Shown piece by piece: positions 2,726 through 9,618 of a DNA stretch of 64,000 nucleotides (position 1 is its first letter; every line of letters begins with the position of its first letter). The notes beneath the pieces are model-generated. The model did no database searches. It saw only the letters and a program-made list of their open reading frames with translations, and was not told the origin of the DNA. The position numbers and the translations under genes were made by a program. The DNA is from an uncultured Dehalococcoidaceae bacterium. GTDB taxonomy: Bacteria > Chloroflexota > Dehalococcoidia > Dehalococcoidales > RBG-16-60-22. The stretch covers positions 5,384 through 69,383 of the forward strand of contig CAYFHI010000001.1 of the NCBI GenBank assembly GCA_964342875.1, given 5' to 3'.

Positions 2726-3901
2726 TCACAGTAAAGATGGAATGTCTTTGGAGGTATCTTCCATTGCTTTTAGTCTGACTTCGGTGGCTTCCTGCCTCTT
2801 TTTGGTTTCGGGAATAAGGTCAGTCGATTTGGTATAATAGCCCCTGATTTTTTCCACATCACTGAGCTCGGAAAGAATCACGGTAACGTCTAGCTGCCCT
2901 TTGTCCCTGGGATAGTCACCATTTCTGATAAGAGCTTCCGGTGCCATGTCCCTCATGTAGTCACCCAGTTCCTTAATCATATCCATATTCATCTCTTTAG
3001 CAGGTCCGGAAACAAGATACATGGCTCTCCTCGAATCTACCGGATTGCATTTGAGGGATAATTCGCTGATAGCCTCGTCCATTGCCTGGATGCCCTTTTG
3101 AATCTCAGCGCCCTTCTTTCTGAAGTCATTCCCCCAATCTTGGGGGAATCGGAGTAATGGAACGTCTGCCTTGCCAAAACCGATTACCGTCCAGCCTACC
3201 AGCGTCTGGATGATGTCACCCGCGTCAAGGAGCTTCGACCCGATGTATTTGGGTCTTTTTTCTTCACCGGCGCAGAGCAGGTTGTAAAACGGTTCTGCTA
3301 TCAAAGAATTGATTTTAGAGAGGTTATGTTTGATTGATGAATCCTTTCTGACATATCTTTGATTATCAATAACAAATATGGCATCAGCTACCGAGTAACA
3401 GGATTTAAGGCAGGTAGCCACGTTATAGGCGGTTCTTTCCTCGGTGGTTACCTCATGCTCAAAAGGAAGGACGATAACGTTATAAACTGGTTTATCTAGA
3501 TATCGTTCTTTTATCTGCTGTGTAATAACGGGTATTGAGCCGGAGCCGGTACCACCGGCTGAACCGGCAATGAGAAGGAAGGCATCCGTTTCATAAAAGT
3601 TCTTGGTGGTTCTGATAGCATCAATGACTTTATCGGCATCTTCTTTGGCTACCTCAGCGCCAAGTTCATTTATTTTCCCCACGCCGTGGCCACCGGTTTT
3701 TCTACCACCAATGAGAATTCGGTGCTGGTATCCCTTCGGGATGCCGGTGAGACCGCTCAAATCAGCCGCATCCGTATTTATTGCAAAAGTACCGGTGACT
3801 ATCTGAATTCCGCGTCGGCTTTTCGCCCTTCTATTTAGCTGGGAAAATTCATCGGCAATCTTACCACCACATTGCCCTAACCCTATAACCACTATTTTCA
3901 T
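2726..3901 (-). CDS. Tubulin/FtsZ-superfamily GTPase, CetZ/tubulin-like, paralog 1
   Basis: 391 aa. T1 loop GLGQCGGK, T4 signature GSAGGTGSGS, T7-like LLDAGD, and GGHGVGKINELGAE, VIDNQRY and NGDYPRD motifs. C-terminal tail KDIPSLL. The layout matches my recollection of archaeal CetZ better than FtsZ. Confidence 0.8.
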   Translation of the reverse strand: MKIVVIGLGQCGGKIADEFSQLNRRAKSRRGIQIVTGTFAINTDAADLSGLTGIPKGYQHRILIGGRKTGGHGVGKINELGAEVAKEDADKVIDAIRTTKNFYETDAFLLIAGSAGGTGSGSIPVITQQIKERYLDKPVYNVIVLPFEHEVTTEERTAYNVATCLKSCYSVADAIFVIDNQRYVRKDSSIKHNLSKINSLIAEPFYNLLCAGEEKRPKYIGSKLLDAGDIIQTLVGWTVIGFGKADVPLLRFPQDWGNDFRKKGAEIQKGIQAMDEAISELSLKCNPVDSRRAMYLVSGPAKEMNMDMIKELGDYMRDMAPEALIRNGDYPRDKGQLDVTVILSELSDVEKIRGYYTKSTDLIPETKKRQEATEVRLKAMEDTSKDIPSLL

Positions 3902-3932
3902 AACTCACCTCAACATTAATCGAGTTTTGTTA

Positions 3933-3961
3933 TTTTATACATACCATTGTGAAAATGTCAA
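3933..3961 (-). promoter_or_regulatory. Predicted sigma70-type promoter of tubulin-like paralog 1
   Basis: On the minus strand: TTGACA, 17 nt, TATAAA, about 30 nt upstream of the ATG. AGGTGAG RBS before the start. Confidence 0.45.
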
Positions 3962-4030
3962 TTCCTTTTGGTAAAAAAAGAAATAAAATACTACTATACA
4001 TATTTTTTCAGACAAGTTTATTAATAAATG

Positions 4031-4059
4031 TTGAAAAACTGAACAGTCTATACTAGAAT
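4031..4059 (+). promoter_or_regulatory. Predicted sigma70-type promoter of the 650-aa repeat protein gene (divergent from paralog 1)
   Basis: TTGAAA, 17 nt, TAGAAT, inside an AT-rich 196-bp divergent intergenic region. Confidence 0.45.
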
Positions 4060-4097
4060 GATATGATAGATAAGGATATTAGGGGAAGGGTGATGGT

Positions 4098-6050
4098 ATG
4101 GTACCTAAAGTATTAGAGGATATCAACATAGGTATTGGGTCGGTTGAGAAAGCTGTAGCTAAGGCCGAGCAGCTGAGTAGGGAGGCGAAAGAGGCGGTAG
4201 AGGCTTCTACGAAGGTTTCTCAGCAGGCGGTAAGTCGGGCGGAGCAGATAAGTACAGAGGCGGGAGTGTCGGCGGCAGAATCGGCAAAAGCCGCTCGAGA
4301 AGCGGTAAAGCGTGCTGAGAAACTGAGAAAAGATGCAAAAGAAGCTGTTGAAGCGTCAATAAAAATCTTTGAAGATGCCATACGCCGGGCAGAAGAAGCC
4401 GCCAGAGCGCCGAGAGATTCAGCTGAGGCGACTAAGAAAATCTTTGAGGAAGCGATTAGCCGGGCGGAGAAAATCAGCAAGGAAGCGATGGGAACGGCTG
4501 AGGCGACATTAGTATTGTCTCAGGAAGTATTAACCAGAGTTGATGAAGTAAGTCGGGGAGCCAAAGAAAAATCAGAATACGCCAGAAAAGTAGCTCAGGA
4601 AGCGGTTGATCAGGTTAATGAAGTAAGTCGGATAGCCCGGGAAGCTGCTGAAGTATCGATTAAATCTTCCAGAGAAGTAGCGAGTAAGGCTGAAAAATTA
4701 ACCAAGTTTGCCAGGGAAGACTCTGAAGCGGCTACCAGAGTGGCTAAAGATGCAGCAAATCGGGTGGAAAAGGCGAGTAAAATCACCAAGGATGATGCGG
4801 AAGCATCAGCCAGGGCAGCTGAAGAAGCGACGATACGGGCTGAAGTAACGAGTAAAGTTTCCAAGGAAATTGCTGAAGCAGCGCAGAGAAAATCTGAGGA
4901 GGCGATGAGCCAGACTGAGGAGATAAGTAGGAGAGCCGAAGAGGCGTCAGAGTCATCACAGAAGATGTCACGGGAAGCGCTCAGCAGGATAGAGGAGATA
5001 AGTCGTGAGTCAAGGGAATCAGCTGAAGAATCACAGAAAATATCGCGCGAGGCAATAGAAAGAGCGGATCGGATTAACAGGGAGACGGTAGAAGCAGCAG
5101 AACAGTCTGCAGAACTCTTCCGTGAGGCGATTGATCGGACCGAACAAGTAAGTATTGAAGCAAAGCAAGCGGCGGTAGAATCGGTAGAGGTCTCTCAGGA
5201 AACCATAAGGCGGGCGGAAGAAATAAACAGGGAGGCTAAAGTAACCACCGAAGCGTCAGCAAAAGCGGCTCGTGATGCCGCTGAGACTTCCGTAAAGGCA
5301 TCCCAGGAAGCGATAAGCCGTGCCGAAGAATTAAGTCGGGAGACAAAGGAAAACGCGGAAGTATTCGCAAAAGCAGTAGAAGAAGCGACGGAGACATCAG
5401 CTCGGGCTGCCCGGGAAGCGGCGGAAACATCAAAGAAAGGCTTTGAGGAAGCTATAAGGCGGGCGGAAGAAGTAAACAAAGAAGCTAAAGAAATGGCGAA
5501 AGCAGCAGAAAAAGCGGCTGAAAAAGTATCTGCAGGTTTGATGACAGCTGCGAAAGAATCGGCGAAGGTTACAGTGAAAACCGCCAGAGAAGCTGTCGAA
5601 ACGTCCACAAGGATTGCCAGGGAAGCGGCAGCGCTATCAATACACGCTGTTGAAGAATTAATTAGCCGTGCTGAGACATCCGGTAAAAATGCCAAAGAAA
5701 CGGTAGAAGCGTCCTTAAAAGCCTTTGAAAAAGCGATTATTGAGAATGAGGCGGAGGGTAGAAAATCGGTTGTCACTGATGGTGTCGGTGAGGAATCAGA
5801 AGAAGCTATTGAAAAAGCAATGCCGGGTGATGAAGAAAAAGATGGCGAGGTTGACGCTGATGAGGCTGCGTTAAGGGTATTAGAAGACGCAATAAAACGG
5901 GCTGAAGATACCAAGTCTAAGAAGAAAAAAGGAACCAGAGGAAAGATTGAGACACGACTGGAATCGTTAGCCAAAATGTATGAATCTCAGAAGGGTAAAG
6001 ATGCTAAAGGAAAGTCAGGTGCGGAAGATAATTTGGGGATTGACGCGTAG
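4098..6050 (+). CDS. 650-aa Ala/Glu/Lys/Ser-rich coiled-coil repeat protein, function unknown
   Basis: Long ORF with a GGGGAAGGGTG RBS region. No TM segment or signal peptide seen. Recurring A[VI]xRAE anchor; Lys-rich, charged C-terminus. The antisense ORFs within it are low-complexity mirror artefacts. Confidence 0.85.
   Translation: MVPKVLEDINIGIGSVEKAVAKAEQLSREAKEAVEASTKVSQQAVSRAEQISTEAGVSAAESAKAAREAVKRAEKLRKDAKEAVEASIKIFEDAIRRAEEAARAPRDSAEATKKIFEEAISRAEKISKEAMGTAEATLVLSQEVLTRVDEVSRGAKEKSEYARKVAQEAVDQVNEVSRIAREAAEVSIKSSREVASKAEKLTKFAREDSEAATRVAKDAANRVEKASKITKDDAEASARAAEEATIRAEVTSKVSKEIAEAAQRKSEEAMSQTEEISRRAEEASESSQKMSREALSRIEEISRESRESAEESQKISREAIERADRINRETVEAAEQSAELFREAIDRTEQVSIEAKQAAVESVEVSQETIRRAEEINREAKVTTEASAKAARDAAETSVKASQEAISRAEELSRETKENAEVFAKAVEEATETSARAAREAAETSKKGFEEAIRRAEEVNKEAKEMAKAAEKAAEKVSAGLMTAAKESAKVTVKTAREAVETSTRIAREAAALSIHAVEELISRAETSGKNAKETVEASLKAFEKAIIENEAEGRKSVVTDGVGEESEEAIEKAMPGDEEKDGEVDADEAALRVLEDAIKRAEDTKSKKKKGTRGKIETRLESLAKMYESQKGKDAKGKSGAEDNLGIDA
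4152..5810 (+). repeat. Coding periodic repeat with a 25-residue (75-nt) unit and later 11-residue insertions
   Basis: Anchor hexapeptides start at residues 19, 44, 69, 94, 119, 144, 169, 194, 219, 244, 269, 294, 319, 344 and 369 (15 units at exactly 25 aa). Later anchors are at 405 (+36), 452 (+47), 521 (+69) and 546 (+25). Confidence 0.85.
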
Positions 6051-6328
6051 GATTTTACCGGTAGGATTATTCATATGTTCTATATATGTTACGATAACAA
6101 AAACCCTAATAGAGGAGTTGTTTGGGTAATCGTAATATGTATGGGAAAAGTTATTTGACTTTTCCGGGTAATTAATATAAACTATGCTTCTAAGTAGCTC
6201 TTCATTTTGGGTAGGATATTAGGGTTAATAGGTACGTGTTTCTGTATGCGTATGACGAAAGTACTGGTGCTGGGTATGTAAAAAAGGTGGATAGAACTGA
6301 CAATATGATGGTATAAAGGAGGTACTTT

Positions 6329-6910
6329 GTGGCTAATTCAAAGCGGAAGTTCAAAAAAGTCTCTGATAAAGCGGAAGAGCAGGTAGCTCCATCACTCGAA
6401 GTTCAGGAAGAAGTTCAGGAAGAAGTTCAGGAAGAAGCTCAAGGATATGGTTTAGAAGGTATCTCAGAACGGGTTGAGGAGACTGTTGTGGAAGAATCGG
6501 AAAAAGTAGGTAACCCGCTTGATGAAATGATGGGTCATGCCGAAAGGGCATACGCGGCATATATGGAGGCGGAACGGCAGGTAGCTAGGGCTTACAGGGA
6601 GAATGAGTTGCAGGTAGCCAAGTCTCATAAGAGAGCTAACAATCAAATTCAGAAAGAATATGATGAGACGACCACACAGGCCTTGAAGACGCGCGAAGAA
6701 GCTTTAACTCGGGCAACGGACGCTCGTGAAAAAGCCTGGCAGGAGGCGGAAGCGATTTTTAGCCAGGCTAAAGAGCAGGCTGATAATGAACTTGGGGCGG
6801 TAATGGCAGAAGCGGTAAGGGTAAAGCAGGAGAACTTGGAGAAAGCTTGGAAAGTACGTGACGATACTATTGACCAGGCTTGGCATATTTATTCAAAAAT
6901 GACAAAATAA
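6329..6910 (+). CDS. 193-aa acidic coiled-coil protein, function unknown
   Basis: GTG start 7 nt after AAGGAGG. N-terminal (EEVQ)3 acidic repeat. The C-terminal two thirds is predicted helical with repeated KAW/QAW motifs. Confidence 0.7.
   Translation: MANSKRKFKKVSDKAEEQVAPSLEVQEEVQEEVQEEAQGYGLEGISERVEETVVEESEKVGNPLDEMMGHAERAYAAYMEAERQVARAYRENELQVAKSHKRANNQIQKEYDETTTQALKTREEALTRATDAREKAWQEAEAIFSQAKEQADNELGAVMAEAVRVKQENLEKAWKVRDDTIDQAWHIYSKMTK
6398..6443 (+). repeat. 12-bp tandem repeat (gttcaggaagaa x3 plus a degenerate fourth copy) encoding EEVQEEVQEEVQEEAQ
   Basis: Three perfect contiguous copies at 6401-6436, read directly from the sequence. Confidence 0.85.
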
Positions 6911-6912
6911 GT

Positions 6913-6946
6913 AAAGATGGTACTATGAGCTAGCGCCATCTTTTTC
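6913..6946 (+). terminator. Possible rho-independent terminator after the 193-aa gene
   Basis: Stem AAAGATGG / CCATCTTT with a 15-nt loop, running into TTTTT. The loop is long, so confidence is moderate. Confidence 0.45.
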
Positions 6947-7007
6947 TGTAATAATTGATAATCTGATAAATCCAGAAGTCCGGCTTTTGTCGAAGGTTAA
7001 AGTTCGG

Positions 7008-8183
7008 TTATAACAGAGAGGGGATATCCTTTATCGTGAGGTCAATCCCTCGTTGCTGGTCTACCAAACCATTCTGGCGTTTCTTAAGTGCAGATATTAA
7101 CGAGATTGCTTTAGTGAAGTATCCCCTGATTTTTTCGAGATCACTAAACTCGGATAATACCACGGTAACATCCAGCATACCCCTATCTCTGGGGTAATCA
7201 CCGCTCCTGATAATAGCCTCCGGAGCCATACCCTTTAAATAAGTTCCGAGCGCTTTTATCAGGTCCATACTAATTTCCCTGGCAGGTGCCGATACGAGAT
7301 ACATGGCTCTTTTGGCATCTATGGGGTTACACTTGACTGATAATCCGCTGATAGCTTCATCCATTGCTTGGGTTCCCTTCTGGGTTTCCGTAGCCTTATC
7401 CCTGAAGTCTCGCGCTCCATCGAAGAGCGATTTGAGGAGTGACGTATGAGACTTGCCATAACCTAAAGTTGTCCAGCCGGAGAGCGACTGTATTATATCG
7501 CCGGCATCCAGCATCTTCGCCCCAATGTATTTCGGTTTTTTCTCTTCTCCGGCACAGAGAAGGCTAAAAAACGGCTCCACTATCATCGCGTTGATCTTGG
7601 TCATATTGCTGCTGATCGATGCGTCTTTAGAGAGATATCTTTGGTTATCAACCAGAAATATCGCATCTGCTACTAGATAGCTGGATTTAAGGCATGTGGC
7701 TACGTTATATATGGTTCTATCTTCAGTGGATTCTTCGTGCTCAAATGGAAGGATGATAAGGTTATATACCGGTTTATCTACAAACCGTTCCTTAATTTGC
7801 TGCGTCATAATTGGGATAGAACCGGAGCCAGTACCGCCAGATGCGCCAGCAACGAGCAAGAAGGCATCCGCTTCAGAGAAACGTTTGGTAGTTCTTACCG
7901 TATCAATTATTTTATCGGCATCCTCCTTGGCTATTTCAGCACCCAGCTCATTTATTTTCCCCACGCCGTGGCCACCGGTCTTCCGTCCGCCAATGAGAAT
8001 ACGGTGCTGGTAATCAGACTTTATCGTCGACAGTCCGCTTAAATCAGCTACATCGGTATTAGCAGCATAAGCGCCAACGATGATATCCAGACCACGAGCG
8101 CCGCGTGCTTTCCGGTTCAGCCTTGCAAACTCATCCGTAACCCTACCGCCACATTGTCCAAAACCTAAAACTACTAATTTCAT
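7008..8183 (-). CDS. Tubulin/FtsZ-superfamily GTPase, CetZ/tubulin-like, paralog 2
   Basis: 391 aa, gap-free colinear with paralog 1 (71 of the first 100 residues identical by eye). GFGQCGGR, GASGGTGSGS, MLDAGD, LVDNQRY and SGDYPRD motifs. Identical tail KDIPSLL. Confidence 0.8.
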   Translation of the reverse strand: MKLVVLGFGQCGGRVTDEFARLNRKARGARGLDIIVGAYAANTDVADLSGLSTIKSDYQHRILIGGRKTGGHGVGKINELGAEIAKEDADKIIDTVRTTKRFSEADAFLLVAGASGGTGSGSIPIMTQQIKERFVDKPVYNLIILPFEHEESTEDRTIYNVATCLKSSYLVADAIFLVDNQRYLSKDASISSNMTKINAMIVEPFFSLLCAGEEKKPKYIGAKMLDAGDIIQSLSGWTTLGYGKSHTSLLKSLFDGARDFRDKATETQKGTQAMDEAISGLSVKCNPIDAKRAMYLVSAPAREISMDLIKALGTYLKGMAPEAIIRSGDYPRDRGMLDVTVVLSEFSDLEKIRGYFTKAISLISALKKRQNGLVDQQRGIDLTIKDIPSLL

Positions 8184-8211
8184 AAATAATTACCTAACGT
8201 GCGATTGAACT

Positions 8212-8241
8212 ATTGTAATCATCTTGACGTACAAAAGTCAA
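8212..8241 (-). promoter_or_regulatory. Predicted sigma70-type promoter of tubulin-like paralog 2
   Basis: On the minus strand: TTGACT, 18 nt, TACAAT, about 30 nt upstream of the ATG. Confidence 0.4.
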
Positions 8242-8592
8242 TCTATCCCCTGTTTTTAAGAGGATTCAGGCGTAAGTTCTCTCAAATGGTTGAGTTGTTA
8301 AACGTGATTTATTACATGTTTTCTTAAAAAATACAGGATAGATAAAAACAGGTTAGTAATATTACGTTGGTTCCTTTTTTCAATATCATGTACTATCTCT
8401 TATTATAGCCCACTATCCATAATGGAATTAATCCAGTCAATCAGGTTATTTTTCTCTGCTACTCCTAGTTTTTAATTGTGGCCCCATTTTGTCATTCTGA
8501 GGAAAACCTCCCGAACCGGCTAAAAATATTGATTCTAGTTTTAGTTTTTATTAAGGTTATCTGATATATGCTTATCTTTCATAGTCAGACCG

Positions 8593-9618
8593 TTATCGTC
8601 TGAGTGCCCGTCGGCCGTACTTAAAGCCTTGTTTGCGCCGTTGCAGCATGTCCAGAAATGCCTCAATGCGTGTTTTTTTATGGGTGGTCAGAGAATAATC
8701 GTCATTACCTTCTAATATAAGAAAGGGTAAGTTAATGGCGTTACGAAATATAATGTCGCCGATTCCCCGGTGACAGAATGCCTGTACATAATGAATGACC
8801 CCATCGACCCGTCTTTTGTCGAGCTCCGCGGTGATGTCTTTTAGTCTTTCATGTATTGAGTATGGATAAGTATAGCTGGAATATTGATCTGCTAGAGAGT
8901 TTCCCGCTTCAGGCATCGCAAACTGTCGCTGAATCTCGTTGAATACTATTCTGGCTCCATTGGTCTCAAGATAGGGGAAAAAGTCTCTGGCGTAAACCGG
9001 AGGTACGCCGATATATGCCATCCTGAGATAATCTGCGGGATATGATTGACGCCGCTGGCATTCGGTTAATAGCGTCTTTAATTGAGAGTAATATTCGTGG
9101 TGGTCCCCGTTGAAATCAGACGAGGAAACCAGCCAGTAGTGGTTCTCGCCGCCGCTGACCAGACTATCTTTCCAGGTCAACTCGTCTAGTTCCCGTGCTA
9201 GGTTGCGGCAGGGTTGAAGTTCATCTCTGACTCGGCTTGCCGCTTCTATGCTTGTACCCAGCGTTGCGGCTAATTCCTCTAAGGTCCGCTGCATGATCTC
9301 TGTATTGGGAAATTCAGGATAGGCGAAAGGTATAGCCTTGAGGTTCTTCAGTCTGAGGACTTCCATCAGTATCTTTGTGTTAGAGCAGTCACCAGTAGTA
9401 ACACAGAGGACGGTATCGATTCCATATTCCATACATACCCCATAGATTCCCTTAATCCAGCTGCAGCAGTTAATGGGGAAACCGGCTTTTTCTGCAATGT
9501 GCACCAACCTTTCCGGGTTAGAGTCGTTTATGAAAATATTGTTCAGGTCAACCGGCTGATAGCCGGCGGCAATGAGAACTTCTATGGGAACTGTAGTGGT
9601 GATGCCGATTTTCTTCAT
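8593..9618 (-). CDS. 2-hydroxyacyl-CoA dehydratase (HgdB/D-component) family protein
   Basis: 341 aa. The N-terminal ITTTVPIEVLIAAGYQPV and C-terminal HYVQAFCHRG patterns are typical of the family. No partner subunit or activator is adjacent. Confidence 0.55.
   Translation of the reverse strand: MKKIGITTTVPIEVLIAAGYQPVDLNNIFINDSNPERLVHIAEKAGFPINCCSWIKGIYGVCMEYGIDTVLCVTTGDCSNTKILMEVLRLKNLKAIPFAYPEFPNTEIMQRTLEELAATLGTSIEAASRVRDELQPCRNLARELDELTWKDSLVSGGENHYWLVSSSDFNGDHHEYYSQLKTLLTECQRRQSYPADYLRMAYIGVPPVYARDFFPYLETNGARIVFNEIQRQFAMPEAGNSLADQYSSYTYPYSIHERLKDITAELDKRRVDGVIHYVQAFCHRGIGDIIFRNAINLPFLILEGNDDYSLTTHKKTRIEAFLDMLQRRKQGFKYGRRALRR

Follow-up and report, generated by a model that had tools for sequence, protein, structure and literature searches.

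A bacterial rod protein with a 25-residue helical repeat and 11-residue length steps, encoded beside CetZ-like tubulins in Dehalococcoidales

Coiled-coil or helical partners are known for several bacterial tubulin homologues, among them ZapB and EzrA for FtsZ and BtubC for BtubA/B. Tropomyosin and nebulin lie along actin, and SF-assemblin is a coiled coil with a 29-residue repeat in microtubule-associated striated fibres. Rods that compound heptads with hendecads are already known in FilP and Scy (PMC9858780), the intermediate-filament-like coiled coils of Streptomyces (Walshaw, Gillespie & Kelemen 2010, cited in PMC9858780). Here we analyse a stretch of 64,000 nucleotides from an uncultured Dehalococcoidaceae bacterium (GenBank assembly GCA_964342875.1, contig CAYFHI010000001.1, positions 5,384 to 69,383 of the forward strand), referred to below as the window. 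One of its genes encodes a protein of 650 residues, which we call the rod protein, and is flanked by genes for CetZ-like tubulin-family GTPases (Table 1). Like FilP and Scy, this protein is a long bacterial rod in which a compound, non-heptad repeat mixes heptads and hendecads, the core is rich in alanine and the length is changed by hendecads. The repeat of FilP and Scy is, however, longer and dominated by hendecads, with a unit of 51 residues at a period of ~3.64, whereas the unit described here has 25 residues (7+7+11, 3.57 residues per turn). FilP and Scy also carry an N-terminal DivIVA-like motif, which Pfam did not detect in the rod protein (no DivIVA or related match at E ≤ 0.1), and their partner at hyphal tips is DivIVA and not a tubulin homologue. 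No sequence homology to them is detectable in the rod protein.

When residues 1-400 are written in rows of 25, the rows align with zero indels. A BLOSUM62 autocorrelation of residues 1-560 has its top lag at 25 (z = 19.4 against 200 shuffles), with harmonics at 50, 75 and 100 and side peaks at 11, 14, 36, 39, 47 and 61. A position-specific matrix derived from the units assigns residues 26 to 376 to phase 0 throughout, and then steps by +11, +22, +22 and +22. A period of 25 dominates and 11 is present just as a sub-module, in contrast to the dominant 11 or 22 expected of apolipoprotein and LEA repeats. A preliminary description of this DNA had proposed a metronomic 25-residue repeat of fifteen units without indel, within positions 4152-5810 (rod residues 19-571), and had named periodicity analysis as a check; both autocorrelation and Fourier analysis recovered the period. 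The anchors that it listed, at residues 19, 44 and onwards in steps of 25 to 369, followed by 405, 452, 521 and 546, are all correctly placed, but the strict pattern A[VIL]xR[AVIT][ED] given for them fits only 7 of the first 15, plus those at 405 and 452, the others being degenerate sequences in the same column. Its claim that the later spacings of 36, 47, 69 and 25 all equal 25 + n x 11 holds exactly, with one, two, four and no inserted 11-mers: residues 376-411 divide as 12+11+13, residues 412-458 as 12+11+11+13, residues 459-527 as 12+4x11+13, and residues 528-552 form a plain 25-mer. The three 11-mers it had named are present, and the spacing of 69 is explained by four consecutive hendecads.

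With the flanking tubulin-like gene as query, we retrieved 21 genomic loci, all from Dehalococcoidales; 12 of these carry a rod orthologue of 658-847 residues, in which 25 is likewise the best lag. Scanning metagenomes with the C-terminal motif of the protein as seed yielded 80 further loci, from which 39 non-redundant complete proteins were analysed. Phase shifts were counted with a cyclic 25-column profile and a Viterbi path with free jumps. The 12 genomic proteins (that of the window and 11 orthologues) gave 101 shifts, with 49 of +11 and 33 of +22, together 82/101. The metagenomic proteins gave 321 shifts, comprising 158 of +11, 114 of +22, 18 of +8 (equivalent to 33) and 5 of +19 (equivalent to 44); 272 of the 321 are thus +11 or +22, and 295 are multiples of 11 (+11, +22, +33 or +44). 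There was no +14 or +3 shift among the 321. We rejected the possibility that false +11 shifts were produced by the 11/14 pseudo-symmetry of the profile, since none of the 321 was a compensating +14 and profile-free alignments also give 11- and 47-residue indels. A model-free count points in the same direction: across 58 proteins, 204 of the 211 strict-anchor spacings of up to 80 residues take just nine values of the form 25a+11b, where ~12% would be expected by chance. Indels of 7 or 18 residues, which would also preserve the helical face, are rare, and changes in length occur preferentially as hendecads.

In a multiple alignment, window residues 19-318 show no gap in 9 of 10 orthologues at ~45% identity over 300 residues; the tenth has a 3-residue gap in this region, equivalent to 22-25. 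Of the 39 metagenomic proteins, 28 have a first in-phase block of 286-314 residues, or 12 units, against 15 units in the window. In the closest relatives, L106 and L108, the tubulin is 90-91% and the rod 70% identical to that of the window, and the sole indel in the rod is exactly 47 residues (12+11+11+13 = 25+11+11), so the unbroken 15-unit run of the window reflects a quantised indel relative to these two. Orthologue length ranges overall from 630 to 907 residues through changes in the C-terminal half. A run of N interrupts the repeat region of the rod gene in one locus (L008:2336-4879), either an assembly gap or a masked stretch.

At the DNA level, Tandem Repeats Finder detected no 75-nucleotide tandem array in the rod gene. 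Gapless repeat families show units that are 60-77% identical, at spacings of 75, 150, 300, 33, 108 and 141 nucleotides, and the 15-mer AGGCGGGCGGAAGAA occurs exactly twice in the gene, at 5208 and 5457. Between orthologues, identity is 42-47% for the same unit and 32-37% for shifted units, which indicates that the unit array predates these species and has been kept unit by unit. Diverged DNA units, a gapless 300 residues at ~45% identity, unit-specific conservation and quantised indels together argue that the register is under selection, and because length changes are tolerated only as whole hendecads or whole units, the apolar stripe keeps its register. The earlier proposals that the units are strongly diverged in DNA, with only short stretches recurring, and that their phase is maintained by selection and not by recent expansion are in line with these data. 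The preliminary description had also asked whether unit number and phase are conserved among orthologues: phase is, with length in the rod changed almost only in steps of 11, but the length of the first block differs. We regard it as very probable that the protein is a helical 25/7 rod in which hendecad-quantised indels are under selection.

The 25-residue B repeats of the streptococcal M6 protein provide a further comparison. Tandem repeats of M proteins lie within a dimeric, non-ideal coiled coil, but they are near-identical in DNA and vary in number by recent recombination, whereas those of the rod are old and fixed in number. M proteins are also secreted and anchored to the wall by means of a signal peptide and an LPXTG motif. 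The rod protein, which begins with MVPKVLEDINIGIGSVEK, has no signal peptide, transmembrane segment or, as read directly from the sequence, LPXTG motif, and is cytoplasmic.

Fourier analysis of hydrophobicity gave one sharp peak at 3.57 residues per turn for residues 19-390. As this equals 25/7, the unit corresponds to seven helical turns divided as 7+7+11. For residues 391-547 the peak lies at ~3.61 (3.60-3.62), the enrichment in hendecads shifting this part toward 36/10 = 3.6. Peaks at 3.57 in the N-terminal and 3.60-3.62 in the C-terminal part are found in 12/12 genomic orthologues, which agrees with the modular construction from heptads and hendecads suggested earlier. Apolar periodicity between 3.5 and 3.67 over many turns is that expected of a non-heptad coiled coil. 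With an undistorted helix assumed to have 3.63 residues per turn (PMC9858780), we calculated that a supercoil at 25/7 is left-handed with a pitch of ~220 residues (~33 nm), against ~98 residues for heptads (~2.3 times the canonical value), whereas at 3.61 the rod is essentially straight. The original characterization of the coil as nearly untwisted therefore suits the C-terminal part but not the N-terminal block, which would retain a left-handed supercoil.

The family consensus of the unit, derived from 744 in-phase units of 58 family members, is ISKEAREAAEASAKAAQEAISRAEE. On a 25/7 helical wheel of these units, an uncharged arc extends over ~160 degrees. Large hydrophobic residues cluster in columns 1 (79%) and 20 (75%), ~115 degrees apart, and the columns between them are 73-90% A/S/T/G, with small-xxx-small pairs at 5/9, 12/16 and 19/23 (A5/A9, S12/A16 and A19/A23). 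Basic columns 6 and 22 border the arc, while acidic columns 4, 7, 10, 18 and 24 lie opposite. For a dimer to accommodate a hendecad core, the core residues must be small, alanine for instance, as FilP and Scy illustrate (PMC9858780), a requirement that the A/S stripe fits; the protein is in this respect a hendecad-containing, alanine-cored rod of the FilP/Scy type as defined in that work.

A single-sequence AlphaFold2 model is helical over almost the whole of residues 2-556, interrupted by six short breaks (56, 104-107, 227-230, 381-384, 445-449 and 529), although at low confidence (predicted local distance difference test score, pLDDT, 64; predicted template modelling score, pTM, 0.32). The model thus supports the helical nature for which structure prediction had been suggested as a check. 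We conclude that the protein is acidic and cytoplasmic and forms a nearly unbroken amphipathic α-helix of ~535 residues, with a length of ~80 nm if extended. In the model, the segments between the breaks are packed together, as they would be if the chain folded back into antiparallel helical bundles, resembling a spectrin- or EzrA-like arch or an apolipophorin, and the molecule were far shorter. The small-residue stripe would suit Alacoil-like close antiparallel packing, and an invariant proline, Pro105, lies at one of the breaks. However, the predicted breaks are irregular, with helices of 27 to 150 residues in a low-confidence model, and for these reasons the topology of the monomer was rejected as evidence for folding back. 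Besides Pro105 there are no recurring or conserved loop-like positions, the hydrophobic phase is coherent through all breaks, and a Foldseek search of the model against the PDB gave no bundle-repeat homologue and no match at E ≤ 0.001. Folding back is, on this evidence, quite improbable. The best Foldseek matches, to chemoreceptors, BAR domains and pore-forming toxins, had E > 0.2 and were discarded as meaningless. Pro105 itself, located mid-rod, may be a conserved kink or hinge.

The composition of the protein is extreme: 127 Ala, 119 Glu, 66 Lys, 62 Ser and 53 Arg (20%, 18%, 10%, 10% and 8%) together make up ~66% of the residues, and the net charge of the whole protein is -23. A low-complexity charged spacer, largely disordered or forming a single α-helix (SAH), could have such a composition; it would need no specific partner, and the adjacency of the tubulin genes would then be incidental. 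The rapid evolution of the rod (~44% identity where the neighbouring tubulins have 76-80%) is compatible with this explanation, as is the result of a PDB sequence search, in which the only matches were designed helical proteins and bundles, a compositional effect, with no natural relative. SAH domains lack a hydrophobic seam, however, and the seam of the rod is strong and sharp. Quantised indels and an invariant C-terminal motif also argue against a mere spacer, as do a gene order kept in nearly all visible loci and an independent association with a CetZ-like gene in locus L022. We consider such a spacer highly improbable.

When 1.84 billion representative proteins were searched exhaustively with HMMER, only 48 matches reached E ≤ 0.001. 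Most of these are fragments of the rod family, and at least 21 carry its C-terminal motif. There was no NCBIfam match, and in Pfam no family exceeded its own cut-off, with Phasin_2 and BORCS6 found only below threshold. A word-indexed protein search with the 650-residue protein produced 8000 candidates, none significant, and was swamped by composition.

The helical wheel also admits an explanation in terms of lipid. With its weakly hydrophobic, A/S/T-rich face of ~160 degrees, basic boundaries and acidic opposite side, the wheel is class-A-like, and the rod could be a surface-active amphipathic helix of the apolipoprotein, LEA, phasin or perilipin type, lying flat on a membrane or other hydrophobic surface and possibly tethering CetZ-like filaments there. 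Its 11-residue modules and a periodicity near that of a straight helix would fit, and there are sub-threshold Pfam matches to Phasin_2 in the rod and to ApoLp-III in a relative, P0028. The dominant period is nevertheless 3.57 and not the 3.67 of lipid-bound 11/3 helices. No apolipoprotein- or LEA-type profile, nor any other Pfam family, matched the rod above its cut-off, and assignment as a phasin (PF09361) was rejected with 20.9 bits against a gathering cut-off of 24.9. The rod part has a net charge of -17 and a pI of 5.2, which would be unfavourable on anionic bacterial membranes, although this is a weak argument. Finally, a closely similar repeat serves as a linker between PAS and HisKA domains in the histidine kinase P0019. 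We therefore view lipid-surface binding as unlikely.

The kinase P0019 (L109:1975-4605) is organized as receiver, PAS, a segment of 11-mers and 25-mers, HisKA and HATPase. In its ~375-residue linker, a run of 11-mers gives way to about ten 25-mers that closely resemble the unit of the rod (SQEAIARAEEEVRLAREEAEAVKTA), which indicates that the rod-type repeat is also used as a very long signalling stalk. PAS-HisKA histidine kinases act as parallel dimers, and the position between PAS and HisKA is normally a helix-helix interface. By analogy with this linker, pairing of the rod is probably parallel and in register. That the rod pairs as a coiled-coil oligomer, as opposed to a lipid-bound or self-folded helix, seems to us reasonably probable.

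Beyond the rod part lies an acidic linker, in which a 2-residue indel separates the window from L106, and then a conserved motif with the invariant residues R620, L621, L624, M627 and Y628. A basic stretch precedes this motif and an acidic, charged tail follows it. The RLxxLxxMY helix is a candidate docking element.

Both flanking genes encode the two domains that define the CetZ family, with scores of 116.7 and 103.1 bits for Tubulin (PF00091), above the Pfam cut-off, and of 59.3 and 59.8 bits for CetZ_C (PF21011; cut-off 21.6). Their best solved relatives are Haloferax CetZ1 and CetZ2 (PDB codes 4B46 and 4B45; E = 2e-43 over the full length). The domain content is that of the Haloferax proteins, but here the host is bacterial, two paralogues flank two rod genes, and the C-terminus carries an FtsZ-like DIPSLL peptide. 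The paralogues of the window are 68% identical to each other and represent two classes that are conserved by position across loci. Nearly all of the ~90 CetZ-like homologues examined end in (K/R)DIPSLL (L012-L019, L022 and L026-L105; positions 2726-2746 and 7008-7028 in the window), including most single-copy proteins and that of L022; L020 and L021, with KELPNL, are exceptions. This tail resembles the conserved C-terminal peptide of FtsZ (DIPxF/LL), a recruiter of anchors and regulators, and its sequence suggests that bacterial CetZ-like proteins may dock to a partner in the manner of FtsZ.

Twelve genomes share the order tubulin, large rod, small rod, tubulin. Among loci that were selected by way of the rod protein, so that the figures are conditional on its presence, the small rod gene lies immediately downstream of the large one in 66 of 68, and where contigs allow a view, a tubulin gene is located downstream in 45/45 and a divergent tubulin gene upstream in 32 of 35. 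The flanking by tubulin-like genes pointed out in the preliminary description is thus a conserved arrangement. A family member only 26% identical, P0028 (487 residues, best lag 25, same C-terminal motif), adjoins a single convergent CetZ-like gene (379 residues) in a quite different neighbourhood (L022:6001-10642). Immediately beyond that CetZ-like gene is one for an SMC_N/AAA_23 protein, and there is no small hendecad gene. Like ZapB, EzrA and BtubC, the rod is a non-enzymatic helical protein associated with the FtsZ/tubulin family, in this case by being encoded with it, and the paired tubulin paralogues recall BtubA/B. None of those partners, however, has a 25-residue repeat or hendecad quantisation or resembles the rod in Pfam or PDB comparisons, and the polymer in question here is CetZ-like, from a family known mainly from archaea.

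Based on synteny, it is fairly likely that the rod is a functional partner of the CetZ-like proteins. As a whole, we lean slightly towards an alanine-cored, weakly supercoiled coiled-coil rod that works with CetZ-like filaments. The rod helix would pair with one or more like helices around an alanine/serine core, gently left-handed over the N-terminal ~300-370 residues and almost straight in the hendecad-enriched C-terminal part. From their gene order, the rod, the small all-hendecad protein and the two CetZ-like GTPases may constitute one cytoskeletal module of a Dehalococcoidales subclade, in which the rod would bundle, space or anchor tubulin-like filaments and docking would fall to the C-terminal helix and acidic tail that follow a flexible linker.

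Several observations weigh against this proposal. The functional link to CetZ is drawn from synteny only, with oligomerisation and CetZ binding both deduced, and the AlphaFold2 model, low in confidence as it is, folds the helix back on itself at irregular breaks. The hydrophobic ridges, ~115 degrees apart, are wider than a classical two-stranded a/d core, so that the oligomer may be of higher order or antiparallel. In related Dehalococcoidaceae (L012, L014, L015, L016 and L019), the locus between GAPDH/HGD-D/enolase and dnaX-recR contains one CetZ-like gene and no rod gene; the rod is therefore not required for CetZ-like function generally, and the module is a lineage-specific elaboration by tubulin duplication and two rod genes. 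Among divergent family members, P0003 and P0004 lie on short contigs with no tubulin gene in view, and the contigs of P0041 and P0019, too short or showing no tubulin gene, are uninformative on context. Lastly, the calculated helical rise of 25 residues, ~37 Å, falls short of the 40-44 Å at which subunits repeat in tubulin/FtsZ-type protofilaments. Because of this mismatch and the variation in orthologue length, we reject the fixed-length helical ruler that had been suggested. Tropomyosin, nebulin and SF-assemblin are likewise long helical proteins with a strict super-repeat free of indels and a cytoskeletal link, which for the rod comes from gene order; their repeat, however, matches the subunit spacing of the polymer, whereas the rod differs in total length between orthologues and its binding to a polymer is only proposed.

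A more elaborate version is speculative, and we hold it to be doubtful: a four-component tubulin-type cytoskeleton in which the CetZ pair polymerises, perhaps as a heteropolymer, and the rod co-assembles through its C-terminal motif along or between the filaments as a prokaryotic analogue of microtubule-associated proteins, the invariant 12-unit block setting a spacing of ~45 nm that shapes a wall-less disc cell. Dehalococcoides mccartyi is not known to have a peptidoglycan wall. Cells of this cultivated relative are reported to be disc-shaped, and such cells in pure culture are rich in a tubulin/GTPase other than FtsZ and in a nearby hypothetical protein, both of which are lower or unquantified in barrel-shaped cells of co-cultures (PMC8163811). 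This shift is suggestive for the rod module, though the genus is different and the identity of the genes uncertain.

CetZ-like groups have been noted in Dehalococcoidia before, without this module (PMC9871819), and we found no described partners or functions for bacterial CetZ-like tubulins. With two CetZ-like paralogues and two rod proteins, the latter outside any Pfam or NCBIfam model, the module offers four concrete proteins. The rod family appears to be undescribed, as do its 7+7+11 unit, which keeps its phase from species to species, the evolution of its length in hendecad steps, and its constant association with a second hendecad protein and two CetZ-like paralogues. For coiled-coil research the rod is an unusually clean natural case, with 25/7 held for 12-15 units across species, a length edited by evolution almost only in 11-residue units, and a grading from 3.57 to ~3.6 residues per turn within one molecule. 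Should the rod bind filaments, prokaryotes would have an equivalent of the periodic filament-binding rods known from eukaryotes, of relevance to research on the prokaryotic cytoskeleton.

Table 1. Positions of the rod gene, its parts and neighbouring features in the window
Feature	Positions	Strand	Remarks
Rod protein gene, 650 residues	4098..6050	+	Open reading frame and translation; no family above Pfam cut-off
N-terminal in-phase block, residues 19-390	4152..5267	+	15 units (7+7+11), no indel; period 3.57
Pro105 codon (unit 5, column 5)	4410..4412	+	Invariant in 11 aligned orthologues; at predicted break 104-107
Junction after residue 328	5081..5082	+	L106 and L108 carry an extra 47-residue block here
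Inserted hendecad 1, residues 388-398	5259..5291	+	AKAARDAAETS
C-terminal rod block, residues 391-552	5268..5753	+	25-mers interrupted by hendecads; period ~3.61
Inserted hendecads 2 and 3, residues 424-434 and 435-445	5367..5432	+	AKAVEEATETS and ARAAREAAETS
Four hendecads in a row, residues 471-514	5508..5639	+	EKAAEKVSAGL, MTAAKESAKVT, VKTAREAVETS, TRIAREAAALS
Acidic linker, residues 553-610	5754..5927	+	Poorly conserved; low predicted confidence; non-quantised indels tolerated
Conserved C-terminal motif KIETRLESLAKMYESQK, residues 616-632	5943..5993	+	Signature [KR][IVM]ExRLxxLxxMY
Second (small) rod gene, 193 residues	6329..6910	+	Basic N-terminus, acidic linker, ~11 pure hendecads; hydrophobic period 3.66
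CetZ-like tubulin-family GTPase, paralogue 1, 391 residues	2726..3901	-	Divergent from rod gene; ends KDIPSLL
CetZ-like tubulin-family GTPase, paralogue 2, 391 residues	7008..8183	-	Convergent with small rod gene; ends KDIPSLL
Divergent promoter-like sites, 196-bp spacer	3932..4059		Consensus matches only
Promoter-like TTGACA-18-TAAAAT	3961..3932	-	Consensus match only
Promoter-like TTGAAA-17-TAGAAT	4031..4059	+	Consensus match only

The small hendecad protein belongs to no Pfam family and has conserved aromatic residues (AYAAYMDAERQVAKAY ... QAWxIYSKIAR). In a Dehalococcoidales protein, P0169, its whole rod domain is fused to a PAS sensor. A 12-nucleotide tandem repeat, GAAGTTCAGGAA, occupies positions 6398-6441 with 3.7 copies and 96% matches and encodes the EVQE repeats of the acidic linker of the small protein; it is a recent DNA-level expansion, unlike the old and diverged repeats of the rod gene. 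Comparison of positions 2726-9618 with L106 and L108 shows that the window has no GAPDH gene between HGD-D and the second tubulin gene, where both relatives have one.

The purine-rich codons of the rod gene account for a local GC skew of 0.30 and AT skew of 0.36, and also for long stop-free antisense reading frames of up to 259 residues on the minus strand (4220-4480, 4610-4864 and 5195-5974). These are most likely artefacts of repetitive GCN/GAR codon usage and not genes. In P0001, the N-terminus of a short-chain dehydrogenase is joined to the C-terminal half of a rod, probably through a chimeric assembly or a mis-called gene.

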